From an uncultured Anaerolineae bacterium (GTDB taxonomy: Bacteria; Chloroflexota; Anaerolineae; Aggregatilineales; UBA3940): 37,490 nucleotides of DNA. The notes beneath the pieces were generated by a model that saw nothing but the letters and a program-made list of their open reading frames with translations, was not told where the DNA came from and did no database searches. The stretch lies in assembly GCA_964637665.1 (NCBI GenBank), contig CAZWUX010000001.1, positions 1-37,490 of the forward strand, given 5' to 3'. The stretch's first letter is position 1. Every line of letters begins with the position of its first letter. Made by a program: the position numbers and the translations under genes. Positions 2,481 to 31,825 of the stretch are shown one piece after another.

Positions 2481-3938
2481 TCACCCGGCGGGGTCATGTT
2501 CCTCCGGCTGCCGGGGGCGCTCCGCCGGGGATCGCTCCGGGGCGAGCGCGCGCAAAATCGCCTGAACGTCCCGCCTGACCTGCGATTCAGTCTTCATGAG
2601 GTCCGCAACCCGGTCACAGCTGTACAGCACCGTGCTGTGACTCCGTCCATCCATCCGCTCGCCGATCTCCTGCAGCGGGATGTCGACCTCGTGATGCGCG
2701 ATATACATCGCCACCTGCCGCGCGGCGGAGACCTCACGCGGGCGCGCCCGTCCGAACAGGTCCGCCGGATCGACGCCGTAGTACTCCGCCACCGCCATCA
2801 CCACGTCGTCCAGCGTCGTCTTGCCCGCCACCGGGGGGGAAGCCGCCTCGCTCAGCGCTTCCTCAGCGAGATCCATCGTGGGCGTGCCCTCGACCAGCAG
2901 CGCACGGGCGATGACTCGGTTGAGCGCGCCCTCCAGTTCGCGCACGCTGCCCCGCGCGTCCTCCGCGATGCGCTCCAGCACGTCGAGCGGCAGCCGCCCA
3001 TCGAAGGCGCGCAGGTCTGCCTTGATTTCGAGGATGTCCACCCGCGTCAGGAAGTCCGGCTCCGCCAGATCGACGATCAGCCCGCCCTCGAAGCGCGACC
3101 GCAGCCGCGCGTCCAGCCCCCGGATCGCGCCGGGCGGCAGGTGTGCGGCGACGACGATCTGCGCCCCGTCGTTGACGAGCGTGTTGAACGTATGGTGGAA
3201 CTCCTCCTGCGTCGTGTCCTTGCCCGCCATAAACTGCACGTCGTCCACCAGCAGCACGTCCACGTCCCGGTATTTCGCGCGGAACGCGCCCGTCTCGCGC
3301 TTGCGGATCGCGCCCACGAGGTCGTTGGTGAAGCGCTCCGCCGTCGCGACCATCACCTTGCGCCCCTTCTCCGCGCAGGCGTTGCCGATGGCGTGCAGCA
3401 GGTGCGACTTGCCGATCCCGACGCCGCCGTGTATGAACAGTGGATTGAACTGGTGGGATGGCGCCTCGACGACGGCTTTCGCCGCTGCGACGGCCAGCCG
3501 GTTGCAGTCCCCTACGGCGAGGTTATCGAACGTGTGCCGGGGGTTCAGGCCCGTGACGCCGGGCGGCAGCCGCTCGAAGCGCGGCGGCTCCTCCGGGGCG
3601 GGCGCGATCTGCTCCATCAGCGGCCCCGCCCCCCGCACGTCCGGGGCATCGTCCTTTTTCTTCTTGTGCTCCGGCGCGAGGACGAACCGCACCTCGACGG
3701 TGCGCCGCGCGAGACGGCTCAGCGTCCGGGCGACGACCTTCTTCAGCCGCTGGTCGAGCCACTCACGCGCGTAGATATTGCGCACGCCGATGATGAACGT
3801 CCCATCCTCGTGCGCGATCAGGCGCGCGTCGCGCAGCCACGTGTTAAACGTGTCGCGTGGAAGTTGAAGCTCAAGCTCGCCGTATGCCGTTTTCCAGATG
3901 TCGGCAGGGCTGTAGGGTTGGTCGGCCATCCTCGTCAC
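2481..3938 (-). CDS. dnaA: Chromosomal replication initiator DnaA (possibly a divergent paralog; alternative start ATG at 3929)
   Basis: Domain I W..FNTWL; NPLFIHGGVGIGKSHL (Walker A); LLVDDVQF (Walker B); QEEFHHTFN; RLRSRFEGGL; VRELEGAL; domain IV ARQVAMY...GRSHSTV. Confidence 0.96.
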   Translation of the reverse strand: MTRMADQPYSPADIWKTAYGELELQLPRDTFNTWLRDARLIAHEDGTFIIGVRNIYAREWLDQRLKKVVARTLSRLARRTVEVRFVLAPEHKKKKDDAPDVRGAGPLMEQIAPAPEEPPRFERLPPGVTGLNPRHTFDNLAVGDCNRLAVAAAKAVVEAPSHQFNPLFIHGGVGIGKSHLLHAIGNACAEKGRKVMVATAERFTNDLVGAIRKRETGAFRAKYRDVDVLLVDDVQFMAGKDTTQEEFHHTFNTLVNDGAQIVVAAHLPPGAIRGLDARLRSRFEGGLIVDLAEPDFLTRVDILEIKADLRAFDGRLPLDVLERIAEDARGSVRELEGALNRVIARALLVEGTPTMDLAEEALSEAASPPVAGKTTLDDVVMAVAEYYGVDPADLFGRARPREVSAARQVAMYIAHHEVDIPLQEIGERMDGRSHSTVLYSCDRVADLMKTESQVRRDVQAILRALAPERSPAERPRQPEEHDPAG

Positions 3939-21533: not shown

Positions 21534-22214
21534 ATGTGCGGACGTTTTACGCTGTGGATCGACCTCAACGAGCTGGTCGGGGCGATGCCCTGGCTGACCA
21601 TCCCCGGCGGCCTGGAGACGCTGACCCCACGCTACAACATCGCGCCGACGCAGCCTATCGCCGTCGTGCCCAACGACGGCGAGCGGGCGCTCGACTTCTT
21701 CGTCTGGGGGCTGATCCCATCGTGGGCCAAAGACCCGAAGATCGGCAGCCGCATGATCAACGCGCGCGGTGAAACCGTCGCCGAGAAGCCCAGCTTCCGG
21801 GCGGCCTACAAACGCCGCCGCTGCCTGATCCTGGCCGACGGCTTCTACGAGTGGCAGAAAGTGCCCGGCCAGAAGGCCAAGCAGCCGGTGTACATCCACC
21901 TGAAATCCGGGGAGCCATTCGCCTTCGCCGGGCTGTGGGAATACTGGCAGTCCGAGTACGGGGACGAGGTGCGCTCCGCGACGATCATCACGACGACACC
22001 CAACGACCTGCTCGCCCCCATCCATAACCGGATGCCGGTGATCCTGCCCCCGGCGGCATACGATCGCTGGCTCGACCCCGGCGAGCAGCCGCCTGACGCG
22101 CTGGACGATCTGTTGGCCCCTTACCCTGCATCCGAGATGGAAACCTACCCCGTGTCGACGATGGTGAACAGCCCGGCCAACGACATACCGGCGTGCATCG
22201 AGCCGCTGGGCTGA
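21534..22214 (+). CDS. SOS response-associated peptidase (SRAP/YedK/HMCES family)
   Basis: N-terminal MCGRF, PRYNIAPTQ, WGLIPSW, INARGET, GFYEW, IHNRMPVIL. Confidence 0.96.
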   Translation: MCGRFTLWIDLNELVGAMPWLTIPGGLETLTPRYNIAPTQPIAVVPNDGERALDFFVWGLIPSWAKDPKIGSRMINARGETVAEKPSFRAAYKRRRCLILADGFYEWQKVPGQKAKQPVYIHLKSGEPFAFAGLWEYWQSEYGDEVRSATIITTTPNDLLAPIHNRMPVILPPAAYDRWLDPGEQPPDALDDLLAPYPASEMETYPVSTMVNSPANDIPACIEPLG

Positions 22215-23258: not shown

Positions 23259-24410
23259 ATGACGTTCCCGCCCATTAAGCGCATCTTCATTCCCTGGATC
23301 AGCCTGCCGCTCGCCTTCCTGATCGCGGCGGCCTGCGGCACGTTCGAGGTGATCGTCGAGGGCACGGCCCCGCCCCCCGGCGAGGTGAGCGTGTCGCCGA
23401 CCCCGGCGCACGCCACGCCGACGGCCACACCCGATTCCATCTCGGCGGGCGTCGATCCGCGCCTGCTGGGGCTGATTTACCGCTACAGCAGCAGCGTCAA
23501 CGAGGTCACCGAGCGGTTCACGATGGACCAGCTTTACGACCGGGCGGCGGTCACGCCATCACCCGACGGCGCGCACGCCCTGTACGAGGACCCCAACGGC
23601 ATCCACCTGCTGACCGCCGCGACGGGGGAGGATCACCTGCTGGTTGACGCCGGTCAGGGGGAGGTTTGCTGCGCGGTGTGGTGGCCCGCCCGCCCGGACA
23701 TCGTGCTGTACGCCGTGCTGCCATCGCTGGACGAGCGCGGGCCCGGCGCGCTGGGCCAGCTTGCCGCAGTGAGCGTCGACGGGACGGATTACGGTGTGCT
23801 CGACGCGGAGCACGATCCCGGCCCCGGCCTGCCCGCCCCCTCGCCGGACGGCGAGCGGATCGCCTACGGCGGCGGTGAGGTAGGCTACATCAAAACGTGG
23901 GGCGGCGGCGTTGAGGTCTTCGACCCGCGTGACTACGGTCTCTCGACGGCGACATCGCCGCATATAGGCAGCCCGGCATGGTCACCGGATGGCGCGAAGC
24001 TGGCGTGGGTGATCGGCAATGTGCCTGAGCCGGAGCAGATCAGCACGGTCGTATTCGACGTGGCGGCGCGTACGGCGACCATCGTCCACACGCACGTCGT
24101 GGTCGGCGGGCGCGGCGGCTGGTTCCCCGCCCCGGTATGGAGTCCCGACGGCGAGTGGCTGACCGTTCAAACGGACGACCTGGCCGACCGGCGGTTCAGG
24201 ACGACGGTCGTCCGCGCCGACGGGAGCGAGGCGCACGAGATCGGCGCGGGCAGCGTCGTGTGGCACCCGGCTGGGGAATGGCTCGCCCTGAACCAGCTCG
24301 ACACCCCTGACGCAGAGATGCAGATCCACCTTGTCGAGGTCGGCGAGTGGGAGCGCCAGCCAACCAACATACCCGCCGGGAGCGAGGCGCTCGTGTGGGC
24401 GGCGCACTGA
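23259..24410 (+). CDS. Lipoprotein with TolB-like/PD40 beta-propeller repeats
   Basis: GGAGGT RBS then ATG at 23259; lipobox IAAAC; P/T linker; repeats SPDGAH, SPDGERIAY, PAWSPDGAKLAW, PVWSPDGEWL. Confidence 0.85.
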   Translation: MTFPPIKRIFIPWISLPLAFLIAAACGTFEVIVEGTAPPPGEVSVSPTPAHATPTATPDSISAGVDPRLLGLIYRYSSSVNEVTERFTMDQLYDRAAVTPSPDGAHALYEDPNGIHLLTAATGEDHLLVDAGQGEVCCAVWWPARPDIVLYAVLPSLDERGPGALGQLAAVSVDGTDYGVLDAEHDPGPGLPAPSPDGERIAYGGGEVGYIKTWGGGVEVFDPRDYGLSTATSPHIGSPAWSPDGAKLAWVIGNVPEPEQISTVVFDVAARTATIVHTHVVVGGRGGWFPAPVWSPDGEWLTVQTDDLADRRFRTTVVRADGSEAHEIGAGSVVWHPAGEWLALNQLDTPDAEMQIHLVEVGEWERQPTNIPAGSEALVWAAH

Positions 24411-24423
24411 TCCCCCATCCCCA

Positions 24424-24463
24424 AAATATAAAGCGGGCTGCCGCGTGGCAGCCCGCCCTGTTT
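24424..24463. terminator. Bidirectional intrinsic terminator
   Basis: GCGGGCTGCC-GCGT-GGCAGCCCGC with an A-rich 5' flank and TGTTT 3' flank. Confidence 0.7.
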
Positions 24464-24472
24464 CGCGCAAAA

Positions 24473-25606
24473 TTACAGCTTCATGCGGTAAATGTGATGC
24501 GTCTTGTAGAAGTCCACGCCGAATTTCTTCATCTCGTTGAGGCTTTTCGCGTTGAACTCGGATATCTGGACCACGTCGGCGTGTTTGAAGCGTGGGAAGT
24601 CGGCCAGCGCCCGGTACAACTCGGCGTACATGACCGCCGTCCCGCCCATGCCCTGATATTCCGGCTGGATGCCCATCCCGTTCAGGTTGAGCCAGTCGGA
24701 GGTGCGCAGCGAGCGCAGCAGGTGGAACCACCCGAACGGGAACAATCGCCCTTTCGACCTGCGCAGCCCCTCCGAGATGTCGATGAAGCAGAACAAAAAG
24801 CCGATGATGTCGTCGTCCTTCGTGAGGAAGCGGATCAACTCCGGATCGGTGATGGTCAGCATCTTGTCGGCCAGCGCCTTGATGGCGTCCTCCGGCATCG
24901 GCGGATCGCCCGCGATGTCCGTGAACGATCGGTTGTAGACCTCGACCAGCCGGGGCGCGGCCCACTTCAGCAGCGCGCGCTTCGAGGAGAACATCCGCTC
25001 CTCGAACCCGTAGCGCTGCCTGACCTTATCCGCGATGTCCAGCACCCGCTGGGGGAAGTTCTCCATCATGTACGGCACGCTCAGATAGCCGGAGTAAACG
25101 CGTTCCTCAAGCTCGAAGCCGTAGTCCGTCGTCAGGCGGTTGTAGTATTCATAATTGTAGGGGATGGTCAATGCCGGGCGACGATCGAAGCCCACCGCCA
25201 GCATGCCGATCCCGTCGAACGGCAGGAAACCGAGCGGGCCGCGCAGCAGATCGAGGCCGCGTTCCCGCGCCCACGCGGAAACGGCGTCGAACAGCGCATT
25301 GGCGACGGCAGGATCGTCCACCGCGTCGAACAGAAAGAACCTCGCCTCGCTGCCCCCTTTGTACTCGTTCTCGCGGCGCGGCCACAGCGCGGCGATGCGC
25401 CCCACGTCCCGCCCATCCTCGACGGCGAGGAAAAACGCCGCGTCGTTTTCTCTATAGTAGGGGTTTTTCTCCCTGTCGAGCTGAAACCGCGCGTCGGAGA
25501 TAAAGGGCGGCACCCAGTAGGGCGAATCCTCGTACAGGCTGAGCGGCAGGTTGATGAAGCGGTTGGCCTCGCGGCGGTTGGTCGTGTCGATCTCGTGGAT
25601 ATCCAT
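24473..25606 (-). CDS. YghO-like double-GNAT N-acyltransferase
   Basis: FINLPLSLY..SPYWVPP, DVGRIAA, F.LFDAVDD, LRGPLGF, PYNYEYY, GRLFPFGW, GIQPEYQGMG. Confidence 0.82.
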   Translation of the reverse strand: MDIHEIDTTNRREANRFINLPLSLYEDSPYWVPPFISDARFQLDREKNPYYRENDAAFFLAVEDGRDVGRIAALWPRRENEYKGGSEARFFLFDAVDDPAVANALFDAVSAWARERGLDLLRGPLGFLPFDGIGMLAVGFDRRPALTIPYNYEYYNRLTTDYGFELEERVYSGYLSVPYMMENFPQRVLDIADKVRQRYGFEERMFSSKRALLKWAAPRLVEVYNRSFTDIAGDPPMPEDAIKALADKMLTITDPELIRFLTKDDDIIGFLFCFIDISEGLRRSKGRLFPFGWFHLLRSLRTSDWLNLNGMGIQPEYQGMGGTAVMYAELYRALADFPRFKHADVVQISEFNAKSLNEMKKFGVDFYKTHHIYRMKL

Positions 25607-25643
25607 CCCGTCCTCCGGTGTGATGTGTTTGCAGCGTGAGGGA

Positions 25644-25677
25644 AAAACAATGCGCCCGGCTGAAACTCTCCGGGCGG
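25644..25677 (-). terminator. Possible intrinsic terminator just upstream of the GNAT gene
   Basis: Minus strand CGCCCGG-N10-CCGGGCG followed by CATTGTTTTT. Confidence 0.5.
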
Positions 25678-25880
25678 TTAACGTCCGTGCGACGCGCGGG
25701 CTGGGCGCGCCGCGATGTGAGTGAATGTTAAGGGATCAACCCCGTAACCGTGTGGAACGGTTTCCTGGCTTTGCGAGACCCCTCTCCTGACCTCGCGTGG
25801 GGGGTTCTGGCAGGCAGATAGAGCAACGCTTCAGGCAAAGTTACCGGGTTATTCAGTAAAACGCCATATGCGTCCCGGCG

Positions 25881-26516
25881 TTACGCATCGCGCGAGAACA
25901 TGAGGCCGAAGCCCCGGCGCGTCACGACGTAGTGATCGGCGTCGTAGCGCGCCAGCCGCTTGCGCAGGCGCGAGACGAGCGTGTCGATCATCTGGTCGGT
26001 AATGTGCGCCTCGTCCGGCCAGACGGCCCCGGCGATCTCCTCACGCGTGACGATCTCGTCCTCTCGGCGCACGAGGGTGGCGAGCAGCGCGTACTGGCTG
26101 GGCGAGAGCGGCGGATCGACGAGCTGGCCGTTGACGAACACCTCGGCGCGTGTCTCATCCACCTGCACGCCCTCGAAGCTGAGCGCCCGCAGATCGACCT
26201 GATCCGTCGCCGCCGGGTCGTCGAAGCGGAGGACGACGGACGACGCAAACTGGATCTCGTCGCCGTCGGTCAGCAGCACCTCGCCCTGCACACGCTCGCC
26301 GTTGACGAACGTGCCGTTCGTGCTGCCCTCGTCGGTGACGGTGTACTGCCCGTAGCTGCGGTCGATGCGCGCGTGCAGCCGGGATATGCCCGGCGCGTCG
26401 AGCGTGAGCAGACATTCCGCATCGCGCCCGATGGTGCACGGGCACTTCTCCAGCACGAATCGCTCGCCTTCGTGAGCGCCGCGTATGATGATCAAGGAGG
26501 CTGGCATGGCCGCCAT
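25881..26516 (-). CDS. FHA domain plus OmpR-type winged-helix transcriptional regulator
   Basis: FHA motifs IGRD, ISRLHARI and D..STNGTFVNG; wHTH motifs LSPSQYALL, VTREEIAGAVW, IDTLVSRLRKRL, TRRGFG. Confidence 0.92.
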   Translation of the reverse strand: MAAMPASLIIIRGAHEGERFVLEKCPCTIGRDAECLLTLDAPGISRLHARIDRSYGQYTVTDEGSTNGTFVNGERVQGEVLLTDGDEIQFASSVVLRFDDPAATDQVDLRALSFEGVQVDETRAEVFVNGQLVDPPLSPSQYALLATLVRREDEIVTREEIAGAVWPDEAHITDQMIDTLVSRLRKRLARYDADHYVVTRRGFGLMFSRDA

Positions 26517-26578
26517 GTCGGACTCCCTCAGCCTGTCTTCGCCCCTGCTCTAATATGTATAACCCCTGCGCGGCAGCG

Positions 26579-27109
26579 CTACACGAGCGCCTGCGCGCAG
26601 TGTGCCCGGACCGCGCACGCCCGGCAGATGGATGGGTCTTCGTGCGAGCGCGGAACCTCCGGCGCGGCGGCAGCCCGCCGCATCTCGCCCAGTAGATCGG
26701 TTAGCCCCTGCCGGGGCGCAGGCCCCCACTCCAGAGGCACGTCCCGGTCAGCGTAGCGCAGCAGCGCATAGGGTACGCTGCGATCATAGACCAGTTCGGC
26801 CAGCCTGCAAAGTGCGGCGGCCTGCATCCGCGTGCCCCGCGAGGGGGCTTCCGGCGCGGGGCGGTCGATGACCTGCACGGGGATCATCTGACCCTCCGCC
26901 ACGAGGTGCAGCAGCCCATGCGGCGTTCCTGCCAGCCCCGCTGCCGGGGCGATCAGCGGGCCGCGTGGCACCAGCGCCTCCGCCGCCCGATCGGCGAGGT
27001 CGACGCGGGCAGCAGGGCGTACGCCCTGCCCCAGCCGGTAGCCCGCCACGATGAGCAGCACCCCGCCCACGGCGCACAGCAGCGCGCCTATTTGCAGGAC
27101 GACGGGCAT
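26579..27109 (-). CDS. Membrane-anchored Cas4/Dna2-like protein, C-terminal part; nuclease motifs degenerate
   Basis: N-terminal TM helix; GLAGTPHGLL (cf. GL.GxPD), IPVQVI (cf. IPVEVK), MQAAALC.L.E (cf. QLxxYxxLxE); C-terminal CRACAVRAHC. Confidence 0.7.
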   Translation of the reverse strand: MPVVLQIGALLCAVGGVLLIVAGYRLGQGVRPAARVDLADRAAEALVPRGPLIAPAAGLAGTPHGLLHLVAEGQMIPVQVIDRPAPEAPSRGTRMQAAALCRLAELVYDRSVPYALLRYADRDVPLEWGPAPRQGLTDLLGEMRRAAAAPEVPRSHEDPSICRACAVRAHCAQALV

Positions 27110-27115
27110 CGCACG

Positions 27116-27391
27116 TTAAAAGACGAGCAGGCCGAGCGCCAGCAGCAGCACGGCCAGCCCGATCAACACCCCACCTGCGATCATCAACCGGCGGGCCAGC
27201 CAGCGCCGCCGAACCAGCGTGGCCCGCGCCTCGCGGATCGCGCCGCCGGGCGCGTAGCCCTTCACGTCGGCCAGCCACCACGCCCGGCGGCAGGTCAAAT
27301 ATGCGGCGATCCCCTCGACGGTGATCAGCGCGGGCGGCGCATCCCCGCTGTGGGGGGCGGGGATTTTGCCGGGCGAGGTGGGGCGCTTCAC
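27116..27391 (-). CDS. Small membrane protein carrying the Cas4 N-terminal Cys motif
   Basis: ITVEGIAAYLTCRRAWWL resembles the Cas4 N-terminal YxxCPRxxW motif; C-terminal TM helix; GTG start overlaps the upstream TGA (GTGA). Confidence 0.72.
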   Translation of the reverse strand: MKRPTSPGKIPAPHSGDAPPALITVEGIAAYLTCRRAWWLADVKGYAPGGAIREARATLVRRRWLARRLMIAGGVLIGLAVLLLALGLLVF

Positions 27392-28032
27392 GACTCGCCC
27401 AGGTCCAGCCGCTCCTCCAGACTGAGGAGCGCCGCTTGGAGCCGCTGCTGGCGCAGGCTGTTCGTCAGGTCGCCGCGCGTGCGTTCGAGCACGCCGCGCA
27501 GCACGTCGACGCGGCGGCGCAGCCCGTAGGTGATGGCATCCGGGAAGTCGAACGTCATCAGTTCGTTGTAGATGTCCTCCATCCGTTCGAGCAGCAGCTC
27601 GGCCTCGTCGTCATGCTCCTGCCGGATGATGTCGAGGATCGTCCGGCGAATCTCGGTGCCGGCCTCGGCCAGCCCGCTCAGGTAGGTCGCGCCCGGCACG
27701 TCAAGCTCCTCCCGCGTGGGCAGCGCCTCGCCGCGCACCAGCGCGTAGGTGGCAAACGCCTCGACGTACTCTTTAAGCGCGTCCTGTGTGTAGCCGGAGT
27801 GATACAGGTCGGGGAAATTTGCCACGCCCTCTGACAGGTTGCGCGCCGCCGCGCGCGCCGTCTCCAGCCCGGCCTGCGCCTGCTCCCAGTTCTCACGGTG
27901 GACGGCCTTGATCGTGTTCGCGCACTGGCGGATCAGCTCCCGCGAGCGCGCCAGCGCGTCGTCACGGGCGGCGTTCATCGCCTCTAGTTCCTCGCGTATC
28001 GCGTCCGCAATGGTGCTCAGGTTGTCGGTCAT
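27388..28032 (-). CDS. Translin/TRAX (C3PO)-family protein
   Basis: RD.AL..SRELIRQCA.TIKAVHR, QDALKEYVEA, YLSGLAEAGTEIRR, LRRRVDVLRGVLERTRGD; all-helical 214 aa. Confidence 0.88.
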   Translation of the reverse strand: MTDNLSTIADAIREELEAMNAARDDALARSRELIRQCANTIKAVHRENWEQAQAGLETARAAARNLSEGVANFPDLYHSGYTQDALKEYVEAFATYALVRGEALPTREELDVPGATYLSGLAEAGTEIRRTILDIIRQEHDDEAELLLERMEDIYNELMTFDFPDAITYGLRRRVDVLRGVLERTRGDLTNSLRQQRLQAALLSLEERLDLGES

Positions 28033-28069
28033 GAGTGCTCCATGCTAAAGGAATGGTTGCATAAGTGCG

Positions 28070-28100
28070 CCTGAACGATAGCGTTCGTCTATCGCTCAGG
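28070..28100. promoter_or_regulatory. 12-bp inverted repeat upstream of the translin gene
   Basis: CCTGAACGATAG-N7-CTATCGCTCAGG (one mismatch). Confidence 0.4.
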
Positions 28101-28337
28101 TCTATTATCGTAAGAAGGCTCTGCTTCGACAAATAAGCCCGCCGCGTTCTCCCGCGCAGACACCAGGGTGATCCATCTTTGCGCCGCCTCTCACACCGGG
28201 CGGCGACCTTCTGAGTAACGCCCTCACCCACACGAAGAAGGCGAGATGGGGAAACCCACCTCGCCGAATACTCACTCACCAACCTACGACGGTCGATGCG
28301 CTAACCAGCCGTATCGACCGCTCAAGCGCTCACTCGC

Positions 28338-28736
28338 CTAGAACGGGATGTCCTCCTCGTCGGTGGCGTAGTCCATGCCGGACCCCATGTCCTGGTCCGG
28401 CCCGCCCGTTCCACCGCGCGGCAGGAACTTGACCTCACGCGCGGTCAGTTCGAGCGTGGCGCGCGCCTCGCCGTCCTGCCCGGTGTAGGCCGACGCCTCG
28501 ACCTCGCCGATCACCATGACGGGGCTGCCCTTACGGAGATACTGGTTGGTCGTCTCCGCGAGGCGGCGCCAGCAGGTCACGCGGAACCACCAGGTTTTCT
28601 CGCCCTGGCTGCCGTCGGCGCTCGTCCAGCGCCGGTTGACGGCGACGGAAAAGCTCGTGACCGGAGTTCCGTCGGCAGTGAAGCGCATTTCAGGGTCCCT
28701 GCCGAGGTTCCCTACGATGATACATTGCTGAAACAC
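28338..28736 (-). CDS. ssb: Single-stranded DNA-binding protein
   Basis: IVGNLGRDPEMRFT.DG, FSVAVNR, YLRKGS.V, acidic tail DEEDIPF; GTG start at 28736 behind GAAAGGAG. Confidence 0.96.
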   Translation of the reverse strand: MFQQCIIVGNLGRDPEMRFTADGTPVTSFSVAVNRRWTSADGSQGEKTWWFRVTCWRRLAETTNQYLRKGSPVMVIGEVEASAYTGQDGEARATLELTAREVKFLPRGGTGGPDQDMGSGMDYATDEEDIPF

Positions 28737-28913
28737 GGCTGCTCCTTTCGTTGGGATGCCGGTTGCCGTTGGGGGTGTCCCGGTTCCCTTTTCAGCCAGC
28801 CCCACCCTGCGTGGATGCGGGGCTGGCGCTGGGTTCAATTGGCGGTTCTGAACCCGGCCCGGTGGCCGGGTTGAGGCGAAAAACGACCTCTCAAGGCGAG
28901 CGGTCACATCCTG

Positions 28914-28947
28914 ATAATACCACATCCCTGTGACACCTTCTGTCACA
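28914..28947 (-). promoter_or_regulatory. Putative ssb promoter with overlapping palindromic operator
   Basis: Extended -10 TG-G-TATTAT on the minus strand; TGTGACA-N5-TGTCACA at 28929-28947 covers the -35 region. Confidence 0.5.
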
Positions 28948-29053
28948 ACACGCTGCGGCGAGTGCTGCCGCTTAGAGTACAGCAAAGCAGGGTGCCATGC
29001 AACCGGCGTAAGGACGATCTGCGGGGCTGGTGGGCAGGGTGTCATAGTCAGGC

Positions 29054-29069
29054 TGTGATATACGTCACT
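29054..29069. promoter_or_regulatory. CRP/FNR-family-like box
   Basis: TGTGA-TATACG-TCACT, 9/10 match to TGTGA-N6-TCACA. Confidence 0.4.
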
Positions 29070-29193
29070 TGCCGGGGAAGCGCCCATGAACTACGCTTAA
29101 ATTGATATTTAAGATATCTAGTGCCTGATTTTCCGAATTACAGGTGATTTACATCCTGTCGAAAGCCAGCCGGGAGCTAGAACGAGGTAAACT

Positions 29194-29625
29194 ATGCTAG
29201 AAATCACACGCCAGGCCGACTACGCACTGCGCGCGACGATGGAAGTCGCCCGCATGGACTTTGGAGAGCGCACGCCGACCGCTACGATCGCTGAGGCCCA
29301 GAACATCCCCCTCCCCTTCCTCGCCAAGATCGTCTCCCAGCTCGTCGTGCGCGGGATTCTAGAGGCGACGCGCGGCGCGAGCGGCGGTGTCAGCCTCGCC
29401 CGCCCGGCGGATACCATCACGATGCTCGAAGTCGTCGAGGCCATCGACGGCCCGATCACCATCAACCGCTGCACGCGCGACCCATCCGTGTGCGAGTTTT
29501 CGATGACGTGCCCCTTCTGTGAGATCTTCACCGACGCACAGCAGATGCTCGTCAACAAGCTGGCTAACACGACGCTGGGCGATATCGTGAACCGCGTCGA
29601 GGCCATGGAGGCCGCTGCGGCCTGA
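29194..29625 (+). CDS. Rrf2-family transcriptional regulator, Fe-S type
   Basis: DYALRA, FLAKIVSQL, RGASGG..LARPA.TITMLEVVEAIDGP, Cys cluster C-x6-C-x5-C-x2-C. Confidence 0.94.
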   Translation: MLEITRQADYALRATMEVARMDFGERTPTATIAEAQNIPLPFLAKIVSQLVVRGILEATRGASGGVSLARPADTITMLEVVEAIDGPITINRCTRDPSVCEFSMTCPFCEIFTDAQQMLVNKLANTTLGDIVNRVEAMEAAAA

Positions 29626-29689
29626 GCCTGTCTCAGCCAGCCTCCGGCCCACAGCAGCGCAGTTCATCTACCCCTTCCCTGACCGGCAC

Positions 29690-29729
29690 GGCCCATCTCC
29701 CGGCGAAACCTTAAGCCGGGAGACGGGCC
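29690..29729 (+). terminator. Hairpin downstream of Rrf2
   Basis: GGCCC-A-TCTCCCGGC...GCCGGGAGA-C-GGGCC stem; weak U-tract. Confidence 0.4.
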
Positions 29730-29894
29730 ATGTCTGCGTCAACCAACCTGACCGCCCACCCTGTTTTGCCCCCGCGCAGGTTCAGCCTATACTGCGAACG
29801 TCACATCTCAGCGTGGTCCACCTGCGCGCTGAAGCGGGCGGCAGATTGACGCATCGCAGGCGGGTGCTCACGACCCATAGAAAGAGGCAGACGG

Positions 29895-30869
29895 ATGGAT
29901 AAGACGGTCCGGTGGGGTATCATCAGCACAGCGGATATCGGCGCAAAGCGCGTCATCCCGGCCATCCACCATTCGCAAAACGGCGAGGTGGCCGCCGTCG
30001 CCAGCCGCGACCTGGGCCGGGCGCGGGCCTTCGCCCGCGCCAACGATATCCCCACTGCGTACGGGAGCTACGAGGAGCTTCTCGCCGACCCCGATATCGA
30101 CGCCGTCTATAATCCGCTGCCCAACCACCTGCACGCCGAATGGAGCATCCGCGCCGCCGAGGCGGGCAAGGCCACCCTGTGTGAGAAGCCCTTCGCGTCC
30201 GACGCCGCCGAGGCGCAGGGGATGGCCGACACCTTCGCCGAGCGCGGCGTTTTGCTGGCGGAGGCGTTCATGTACCGCTTCCACCCGCGCACCCGGCGGA
30301 TCAAGGAGCTGATCGACGGCGGGGCCATCGGCGACGTGCATATGATCCACGCGGCTTTCAGCTTCGACATCGACGACGAGGATGACATCTGCCTCAAGTC
30401 GGAAATGGCGGGCGGCGCGCTGATGGACGTGGGCTGCTACTGCATCAACGTGATGCGCTTCGTGACGGGCGAGGAGCCCGACCGCGCCAGCGCGCAGGCC
30501 GAGTTCGGCGCGCGGAGCGGCGTGGACGAACGACTGGTGGGCGCGCTCGGCTTCCCATCGAGTGTGCTGGGTGTGTTCGATTGCAGCGTGCGGACTCCGG
30601 ACCGGCAGATGGTCGAGATTCGGGGTGCGAAGGGGCGGATCGCCGTCGATCTGGCATTCGTGCCGCCGGAGGACGAGGCGGCAACCTTTCAGTTGTGGCG
30701 CGGCAAGAAAGTCGAGATCATCGCCGTCCCGGTCACTGACCAGTATCAGTTGATGGTCGAGGACTTCGCCGACGCGCTGCTCAACGACCGCCCGCCGCGC
30801 TTCCCCCCACAGGACGGCGTCGCGAACATGCGCGTCGTCGACCGGCTGCTGGCCTCGGCGCGCGGTTAG
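29895..30869 (+). CDS. Gfo/Idh/MocA-family oxidoreductase
   Basis: VRWGIISTADIG, YNPLPNHLHAEW, LCEKP, EAFMYRFHP, GGALMDVGCY. Confidence 0.93.
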   Translation: MDKTVRWGIISTADIGAKRVIPAIHHSQNGEVAAVASRDLGRARAFARANDIPTAYGSYEELLADPDIDAVYNPLPNHLHAEWSIRAAEAGKATLCEKPFASDAAEAQGMADTFAERGVLLAEAFMYRFHPRTRRIKELIDGGAIGDVHMIHAAFSFDIDDEDDICLKSEMAGGALMDVGCYCINVMRFVTGEEPDRASAQAEFGARSGVDERLVGALGFPSSVLGVFDCSVRTPDRQMVEIRGAKGRIAVDLAFVPPEDEAATFQLWRGKKVEIIAVPVTDQYQLMVEDFADALLNDRPPRFPPQDGVANMRVVDRLLASARG

Positions 30870-30880
30870 CAGGGCGCGCC

Positions 30881-31825
30881 CTAGTCGTCTTTCACCCGCT
30901 CCAGCGGCTCGCCGCCCCGGATGCGGTAGTGGTCGAAATCGCGCGCGACGACGGCCTCCGGGAAAACCTCGCGCGCTTCCTGCACGATGTCGCGCTCCCG
31001 GTAGCGGCGGGAGATATGCGTCAGCAGCAGGTGGTCAATATTCTGCTCGCGGGCGAGCGTCGCCGCCTCCTGGGCGGTGATGTGCCCAAAACGGCGCGCC
31101 AGGTCAACCTCATAGTGCAGATAGGTGGCCTCGGTGACGAGCGCGGTCGCGCCCCCCACGTAGGGGGCGAGGTCGGGCGCGCTGCCCACGTCACCCGTGA
31201 TGATGATCTTATCGCCGGGGGCCGCCGGGCCAAGAACGTCGTCGGGCCGGACCCTCCGGCCATCCGCCAGCCGCACGGCCTTCCCATTGACCAGATCGCG
31301 CCGCTCCGGGCCGCGCGGCACGCCCAGCGCCTCCGCCCGCTCGTTGAGGAACGGGCGGCGCGGCTTTTCCTCGAAGGCGAACCCGAAGCAGCCCGGTCCC
31401 CGGTGATCGACCGGGAAGGCGCTCACCCGGAACTCGTCGTCCTCCATCAGGACGCCCGGCTCGATCTCGATCAGCTCGATGTCGACCGGGGTCCGCGCCC
31501 CGCGCAGCACGACGCCGAACAGCAGGTCATTCACCCGGTTGAGCGTCGCCCGCCCGCCCCATATCTCGATCTGCTCCATCGCCTCCCAGCGGGCGAAGGT
31601 CGAGATCAGCCCGGCCAGCCCCAGAATGTGGTCGAGGTGGCTGTGCGTCAGCAGAATCCGGTTGAGCCGCCTGAAGCCGATGCCGCTCTTGAGAATCTGG
31701 CGCTGGGTGCCCTCACCGCAGTCCACCAGGAAACGATACTGCTTGTGCAGCACGGCCTGCGCGCTCAATCCGCGCTGTATGGAGGGCGCGCTCGCGCCCG
31801 TTCCGAGGAAGACCAGCTCAAACAC
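30881..31825 (-). CDS. rnz: Ribonuclease Z
   Basis: FLGTGASAPS..R, DCGEGTQRQ, THSHLDHILG (HxHxDH), GVPRGP exosite, EATY, LLTHISRRY. Confidence 0.92.
   Translation of the reverse strand: MFELVFLGTGASAPSIQRGLSAQAVLHKQYRFLVDCGEGTQRQILKSGIGFRRLNRILLTHSHLDHILGLAGLISTFARWEAMEQIEIWGGRATLNRVNDLLFGVVLRGARTPVDIELIEIEPGVLMEDDEFRVSAFPVDHRGPGCFGFAFEEKPRRPFLNERAEALGVPRGPERRDLVNGKAVRLADGRRVRPDDVLGPAAPGDKIIITGDVGSAPDLAPYVGGATALVTEATYLHYEVDLARRFGHITAQEAATLAREQNIDHLLLTHISRRYRERDIVQEAREVFPEAVVARDFDHYRIRGGEPLERVKDD

Follow-up and report, generated by a model that had tools for sequence, protein, structure and literature searches.

The stretch of DNA analysed here, a 37,490-nt window of contig CAZWUX010000001.1 (positions 1 to 37,490) from an uncultured Anaerolineae bacterium, contains four co-directional minus-strand open reading frames (ORFs) spanning 25881-28032. 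They encode a translin-family protein, the N-terminal and C-terminal halves (N and C) of a membrane-anchored Cas4-like nuclease domain and a regulator that joins an FHA domain to a winged helix-turn-helix (wHTH). Taken as a whole, the locus is best explained, in our moderately confident view, as a vertically inherited, core-chromosome translin-split-Cas4 operon of one Chloroflexota class that would serve single-strand processing. A preliminary description of this DNA had named the same four genes, placed an ssb gene upstream, and given a GTGA stop/start overlap and spacers of 6 and 62 nt; the gene identities were borne out, and the ORF coordinates proved exact. Likewise, its statements that translin keeps acidic residues at catalytic positions and that the Cas4 pair of this genome is split, membrane-anchored and catalytically dead agree with the alignments described below.

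The source genome (G000) belongs to the class Anaerolineae of the Chloroflexota; its family is referred to as f1, and L-numbers denote loci of related genomes. Comparisons drew on a sample of 301 genomes of the same class, on 30 translin loci of the same order (order-level loci), and on alignments of 29 N-half sequences, 26 C-half sequences (alignment A5) and 26 translin relatives. Additionally, gene neighbours were surveyed in 20 families of the class, for which 99 of 154 candidate ORFs were scanned against Pfam.

A TRAX-type translin with a predicted four-carboxylate site

The translin protein matches Archaeoglobus fulgidus TRAX (AfTRAX) over residues 11-190 (PDB 3zc1_A, E 3.2e-22) and NEQ131 (5jr9, E 7.6e-13). 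Two pairs of acidic residues, E88 and E91 (within KEYVEA) and E123 and E127 (within GLAEAGTE), occupy, in the alignment, the E..E and D...E positions of AfTRAX and are invariant in 26/26 class relatives. Its best NCBIfam model is NF011160, of the PRK14562 type (5.7e-77, 257.9 bits, below the 291-bit equivalog cut-off), a family whose "haloacid dehalogenase" label we take to be a misnomer, and Pfam Translin gave no match to the window protein at E<=1. By homology, gene 1 is a TRAX-type translin and a predicted nuclease with an intact four-carboxylate site.

Metal-binding residues of NeC3PO are Glu82, Glu85, Asp117 and Glu121, and Nanoarchaeum equitans TRAX cuts single-stranded DNA (ssDNA) and double-stranded DNA besides RNA; a single translin-superfamily gene per genome has already been noted for Chloroflexi (all PMC5100593). 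The window translin resembles archaeal C3PO/TRAX (3zc0, 3zc1, 5jr9) in its full-length similarity and in the two acidic pairs at catalytic positions, and differs from it in having, like all 26 class relatives, Glu instead of Asp as third residue, in its sub-cut-off NCBIfam score and in lacking a Pfam Translin match. The gene partners differ as well: a second single-strand binding protein (SSB) or a DUF3467 protein is encoded upstream and the split Cas4 downstream, whereas the archaeal arrangement is a TRAX-SepRS operon (PMC5424206). A complex prediction combining translin with the soluble parts of the C half (residues 27-176) and the N half (residues 17-66) scored 0.02 against a mark of 0.32, and speaks neither for nor against binding.

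Two genes encode the parts of one predicted Cas4 domain

The N half carries a C34-x-R-A-W-W motif, which would supply the first Fe-S cysteine; beyond it come basic residues and, at the C-terminus, a membrane helix (residues ~69-91); C34, R36 and W38 are invariant in all 29 N-half sequences. The C half begins with a membrane helix (residues 2-29) and continues into a PD-(D/E)xK core and the cysteines C162-x2-C165-x5-C171. Searched on its own, the window N half had no family match in Pfam, NCBIfam or PADLOC, and the window C half gave weak matches to PADLOC Cas4 (1.7e-5), TIGR00372 (1.1e-3; 18.8 bits against a cut-off of 65) and Pfam Cas_Cas4 (0.24; 11.9 against 22.7 bits), while a PDB phmmer search with the C half alone returned chance-level matches.

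The window copies themselves give weak evidence; the Cas4 identity of these two small proteins is settled by the profile matches of their relatives. The C halves of L007 and L009 pass the Pfam Cas_Cas4 cut-off (40.4 and 41.3 bits, respectively), and the two L007 proteins divide the 180-position Cas4 profile PDLC00943 between them, N spanning positions 1-47 (1.1e-4) and C positions 52-178 (8.5e-22). Compared with the Cas4 chain 8d3l_I, the C profile matched residues 102-201 (E 8e-6) and the N profile, weakly, residues 3-48 (E 0.33). Furthermore, an AF2 model of the window C half (pLDDT 86.7; residues 2-29 form one long helix) retrieved Cas4 structures as its top Foldseek matches (4ic1_D, 5e-4; 7mi5_A, 5.3e-4, probability 1.00, TMq 0.55; 7mi4; 8d3l_I), followed by ACE1, AdnAB, MGME1 and Dna2. 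Judged by these profile and fold matches, genes 2 and 3 are the N part (~1-47) and the C part (~52-178) of one Cas4 domain.

The arrangement of residues across the pair suggests how the two chains would meet. The N helix is preceded by RRRWLARR and the C helix is followed by basic residues; because basic residues flank both helices, the positive-inside rule predicts that the two soluble parts face the cytoplasm, where they should assemble into one Cas4 fold. The 1+3 set of Fe-S cysteines is complete, with C34 in N and C162, C165 and C171 in C, all invariant. Active relatives have a conserved His in N (AGxxxHxxHG) and D/E/K in C; in SSO0001, the metal ligands are His62, Asp99, Asp113 and Lys115 (PMC13621843), and the conserved N-half His of the relatives is probably a metal ligand too. 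Given this distribution of His, D/E/K and cysteines, both the active site and the Fe-S cluster would be shared between the two chains.

The two-gene form is widespread. N lies directly upstream of C in 25/28 class loci and in 12/16 loci of nine other Chloroflexota families, and the relatives' N and C ORFs lie in different frames and often overlap. In a phylum tally, the C profile was found in 98 of 251 genomes (a count that includes G359, flagged unpublished, a genome used for no other claim), and a C-profile search retrieved no fewer than 3331 proteins at E<=1e-10, of which the 120 best listed all measure 169-184 aa; databases name such relatives "CRISPR-associated protein Cas4" or "Dna2/Cas4 domain-containing protein". 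In G000, the N and C ORFs share a frame, with only the TAA and two codons between them; since relatives use different frames, this same-frame TAA is incidental. As far as sequence comparison can tell, the split is real and old.

A fused single-ORF form carrying both helices, to which some long open frames had pointed, was considered as well and rejected, the upstream C-frame part of L006, L007 and L104 not being the N protein. Separately, family f8 encodes unsplit, helix-free relatives of 183 aa (L011:1495-2043, minus strand; L012:1312-1860, plus strand), which belong to the same order as G000 and keep the Asp, with VLRK in place of EVK; neither of the two f8 genomes searched contained translin.

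Translin and the split pair keep one order in most class genomes compared

Translin was found in 273 and the C profile in 231 of the 301 class genomes. Linkage was counted over the 96 class genomes whose translin and C-half coordinates were both among the 150 matches listed per search, and in 66 of these the C half follows translin on the same strand at a distance of less than 5 kb, with orientation and order identical in 66/66 cases. Recurring in so many genomes, the order translin-N-C is far from what chance would give. The gap measures 282-652 nt in 32 of them, with only N between, 920-1299 nt in 31 and 2.7-3.5 kb in 3; a YkuD L,D-transpeptidase gene inserted between the two halves accounts for the gaps of 0.9-1.3 kb. 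Overlap or near-abutment of the translin stop and the N start recurs (for example in L005, L046 and L096), and the adjacency of translin and N persists where YkuD parts N from C. Outside the class, the order translin-N-C was found at three loci, in families f79 and f70. In genera g59 and g69, translin and the C profile are jointly absent; a broader hint of co-loss comes from the translin-negative class genomes, 6 of the 20 listed being among the C matches listed, compared with 231/301 overall, a comparison in which relatives are not independent and which omits 8 further translin-negative genomes outside the listed 20. A query with a single translin had first suggested weak linkage (nine loci, none with a Cas4 pair), which larger genome sampling corrected.

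The YkuD-inserted loci (L113, L114, L116, L117, L119, L120 and L121; for example L116:4700-5575) encode a membrane-anchored protein, and a periplasmic cell-wall enzyme gene inside a two-gene nuclease is an odd insertion.

The main alternative to an operon with a joint function is plain synteny, in which translin, the pair, the FHA-wHTH regulator and ssb do separate jobs and simply keep an order inherited within the class, as conserved order within one class can be. Several observations point this way and weigh against the operon. Translin and C are apart in 30 of the 96 class genomes (4 far on one contig, 26 on different contigs), and in nine other Chloroflexota families none of 16 loci has translin within 4 kb of the pair, translin lying elsewhere in 5/5 genomes tested and megabases from the pair in the complete genomes G412, G527 and G566. 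YkuD separates N from C in 7/20 families, so that tight N-C coupling is not required. Within the order, where the Cas4 pair lies downstream of translin in 6/30 loci, the space between translin and a GNAT-like gene is variably empty or filled by FHA, by the pair or by both. Among other f1 genomes, translin is retained in 22/23 and the pair in 3/23. Two further points against the operon reading concern the window itself: its own N and C proteins reach no curated family cut-off, and its scanned ORFs include no kinase that could partner the FHA domain. Set against plain synteny are the recurring translin/N overlaps, the uniform order of all 66 linked cases, the translin-N adjacency that outlasts the YkuD insertion, the recurrence of the order in two families outside the class, and the joint absence in two genera. 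We regard plain synteny as a possible but less probable account.

The cluster lies in a core-chromosome setting

Genes elsewhere in the window are those of a core chromosome, including dnaA, homoserine dehydrogenase, CoaE, RNase Z and an SRAP peptidase. The dnaA gene (2484-3938, minus strand) lies ~24 kb from the cluster, which places the window near the replication origin; the SRAP peptidase gene (21534-22211) and the RNase Z gene (30884-31825) are close to the cluster. Among the window ORFs scanned, no integrase or other mobile-element gene, no toxin-antitoxin gene, no restriction gene and no cas gene was found, and the window contains no tandem repeats or repeat array.

This setting bears on a second alternative, a module for defence or surveillance against phages or plasmids in which a solo-Cas4-like protein would be sensor or effector and translin the nuclease. 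The Cas4 family takes part in CRISPR adaptation, and some solo forms occur in defence contexts (PMC5704561); moreover, the only PADLOC matches of the cluster were to Cas4 and DruK-type profiles, and a RAMP-domain protein (1105 aa) follows the pair in one relative, L112. Yet translin and the pair occur nearly throughout the class, the region is core chromosome with housekeeping neighbours, and the neighbours in the 20 families surveyed are otherwise metabolic and translation genes. Translin, the N half and FHA-wHTH had no match in PADLOC-DB 2.0, and Cas1 had no match in G000 (89% complete). Near-universality and core context together make a defence role unlikely. On the comparative evidence, the locus is best read as a housekeeping-type operon of its lineage and not as a mobile defence island.

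In family f1 the pair has lost its catalytic residues and evolves under selection

In alignment A5, 22/26 C halves keep the motifs G[RK]PD, PxExK and QLxAYC. The four that lack D/E/K/Y (G000, G005, G002 and G020) all belong to family f1; G000 has H64, Q79, I81 and L100 in place of D, E, K and Y, and across the four the second and fourth positions are Q79 or T and L100 or F. The f1 N halves are likewise without the His motif; the four cysteines are invariant. The pair's ORFs are intact in these four genomes, which represent three genera. Ratios of nonsynonymous to synonymous substitution (dN/dS) between G020 and G002 were 0.15 (C), 0.21 (N) and 0.08 (translin), and the ratio between G000 and G005 was 0.26 (C). 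From the residues and the ratios, we infer that the f1 Cas4 pair is catalytically dead yet under purifying selection, not decaying.

It is correspondingly very improbable that the G000 pair represents a pseudogene in decay, or one gene that an in-frame TAA interrupts and read-through rescues: the lost catalytic residues, the patchy presence among other f1 genomes and the shared frame in G000 would fit such an origin, but the dN/dS values of 0.15-0.26, the intact ORFs with all four cysteines, the phylum-wide two-ORF layout, the different frames in G005, G002 and G020 (same-frame read-through thus not being conserved) and the presence of an unchanged TAA junction in DNA contigs of two further public runs (X2 at 27083-27367 and X3 at 27036-27186), whose independence from the source sample is uncertain, all oppose it.

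Predicted transcription unit and neighbouring genes

The features of the locus are collected in Table 1, in which promoter and terminator entries are pattern matches from a consensus scan. In the region scanned, three promoter-like sites were found against 0.9 expected. The matches fit a single unit of translin, N, C and FHA-wHTH, possibly with the GNAT-like gene, transcribed apart from ssb. In an Rfam scan of 24000-30000 (E<=1), no match was obtained, so that the 305-nt gap between ssb and translin holds no known RNA element. A repeat search of 25600-25890 and 28025-28345 returned one 10-nt direct repeat in two copies and one 11-nt inverted repeat, both treated as chance, and no candidate operator for the wHTH. 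One contig of run X2 (depth 3.8) lacks 14 nt at 26561, a strain variant within the 62-nt spacer between C and FHA-wHTH.

Table 1 Genes and predicted transcription signals at the translin-split-Cas4 locus (window coordinates)
Feature	Position	Strand	Remarks
Strong terminator-like hairpin after GNAT-like gene	24430-24459	-	13 pairs, 9 G-C; consensus scan
GNAT-like ORF	24473-25606	-	377 aa; 275-nt spacer from FHA gene
FHA-wHTH ORF	25881-26516	-	211 aa; 62 nt beyond C half
C-half ORF	26579-27109	-	176 aa; starts 6 nt (CGTGCG) after N-half TAA
N-half ORF	27116-27391	-	91 aa; GTG start; GTGA overlap with translin at 27388-27391; TAA stop
Translin ORF	27388-28032	-	214 aa; TGA stop overlapped by N-half start
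Sigma-70-like promoter match TTGTCG-17-GATAAT	28104-28132	-	72 nt upstream of translin start; consensus scan
Terminator-like hairpin after ssb	28240-28265	-	11 pairs, 8 G-C; consensus scan
ssb	28338-28737	-	Upstream of translin; stop at 28338; start approximate, ORF open further upstream

The SSB encoded upstream of translin is well recognised (Pfam SSB, 1.9e-31; TIGR00621, 8e-34) and has the acidic tip DEEDIPF. Because G000 has its canonical ssb on another contig, C2, within rpsF-ssb-rpsR (~25150-25630; L123 1859-2335, minus strand), the translin-linked gene is a second paralog. In 22/30 order-level loci, translin has an ssb gene upstream.

The fourth gene of the cluster encodes a protein with an FHA domain at residues 27-90 (Pfam FHA, 2.6e-22; 79.4 bits against a cut-off of 20.7) and a Trans_reg_C domain at residues 136-206 (4e-16; 59.3 against 26.2 bits), with no match to the receiver domain Response_reg of Pfam. 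By domain content it is an FHA plus OmpR/PhoB-type winged-helix regulator, for which binding of phosphothreonine and of DNA is predicted. EmbR of Mycobacterium likewise joins an OmpR-type winged helix to an FHA phosphothreonine reader instead of a receiver domain. The G000 protein differs from EmbR in its order (FHA, then wHTH), in having no BTAD domain and in having no cognate kinase identified. Downstream of translin, FHA-wHTH genes were found in 11/30 order-level loci, 8 directly and 3 after the pair, and the G000 genome encodes a single further full-length paralog of the regulator (39% identity).

The GNAT-like protein has a weak C-terminal match to Pfam Acetyltransf_1 (8.1e-5) and no NCBIfam match. 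Its gene, which may be the last of the unit and is a constant neighbour within f1, follows translin, the pair or FHA in 9/30 order-level loci, and also at L013-L015.

Upstream of translin, a gene for a DUF3467 protein (PF11950) occurs in 6/30 order-level loci and precedes translin in at least 8/20 class families. This small protein is the usual product of the gene directly upstream of translin outside f1 (L104, L107, L109, L110, L112, L116, L118, L120, L017, L018 and L020), and the order ssb, DUF3467, translin is seen in L118, L071 and L076.

On the other side, 4 of the 20 class-family loci have an NAD kinase gene after the pair, and one of these also has a RecN-like gene. Where the pair lies apart from translin, an NAD kinase gene often follows (L025, L027, L028, L032 and L033; L110, L115, L116 and L117), and L117 has the order NAD kinase, a 188-aa ORF of unknown kind, RecN-like protein. 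In genome G178, the RAMP-superfamily protein of L112 (5699-9013, plus strand; PF03787, 2.7e-21) is encoded directly after the C half and is the only CRISPR-like neighbour in the 20 families surveyed. In genome G110, translin is preceded by a divergently oriented gene for a PilB/T2SSE-type ATPase (L108:2517-3854, minus strand), and a 922-aa HerA-like (DUF87) protein is encoded after the Cas4 genes (L108:5234-7999, plus strand).

Discussion

For the translin-split-Cas4 operon, the function that we favour is membrane-proximal processing of single-stranded nucleic acid. The soluble parts of N and C would join in the cytoplasm as one Cas4 fold, and in the relatives the resulting enzyme would trim ssDNA ends on the inner side of the membrane; the single-stranded DNA or RNA so released would be degraded by the translin barrel, and the dedicated second SSB encoded just upstream would handle single strands. 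In G000, the pair would instead be a non-catalytic, membrane-anchored Fe-S or nucleic-acid-binding subunit, with translin as the cluster's only active nuclease. The FHA-wHTH protein may be an order-level regulator that answers phosphothreonine signals and controls the unit or the GNAT-like gene. As substrate, DNA is weakly favoured over RNA on three grounds, namely the dedicated SSB paralog, the action of Cas4 enzymes on DNA and the ability of archaeal TRAX to cut ssDNA as well; the NAD kinase and RecN-like genes near the pair were counted toward the same lean.

A more specific version joins these elements into one membrane-associated ssDNA machine, acting for example on DNA during its entry or repair at the envelope. 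It would consist of an Anaerolineae-wide two-subunit Cas4, whose active site and Fe-S cluster form only when the membrane-anchored chains meet, a C3PO-type translin barrel and the second SSB; in f1, the pair would now serve translin as a non-catalytic anchor or sensor that binds an Fe-S cluster or DNA, under control of FHA-wHTH. In this full form we consider the proposal rather doubtful.

The preliminary description had gone further than the comparative data allow in several respects. Recruitment of translin by a dead pair does not hold as a general mechanism, since 22/26 relatives keep the Cas4 motifs and the dead form is confined to f1. An accessory surveillance system is at odds with translin and the pair being near-universal, single-copy, core-chromosome genes of the class. 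Finally, control linked to a Ser/Thr kinase found no counterpart, neither a kinase nor a phosphatase occurring among the window ORFs scanned. Absence of the linkage elsewhere, which would have counted against it, was not observed: the linkage does recur in other genomes, for translin and the pair in 66/96 class genomes and for FHA-wHTH in 11/30 order-level loci.

Monophyletic solo-Cas4 proteins of many Chloroflexi are already in print (PMC5704561). With solo and CRISPR Cas4 (PF01930, TIGR00372; SSO0001 4ic1, Pcal_0546 4r5q, type I-C Cas4 8d3l), the pair described here shares the PD-(D/E)xK fold and the 1+3 cysteines; it differs in consisting of two polypeptides with one membrane helix each, as opposed to a single soluble chain, and, in G000, in having D, E, K and Y replaced. 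From CRISPR Cas4 it differs further in having neither a cas1 match in the genome nor a repeat array in the window. The words "transmembrane" and "split" are absent from the searched text of PMC5704561, and among the publications listed for Cas4 with transmembrane no title or abstract was found that describes a split membrane-anchored Cas4. Similarly, no publication was found that combines translin with Cas4, or translin with Anaerolineae.

As a class-wide, translationally coupled operon, accompanied within the order by an SSB paralog, the locus offers a concrete and testable context for the roles of bacterial translin/TRAX and of solo Cas4. A membrane Cas4 made of two polypeptides is an unusual enzyme layout, in which the Fe-S cluster and the active site would be shared between subunits, and the G000 pair, naturally dead and nevertheless conserved, would be a ready-made separation-of-function allele.

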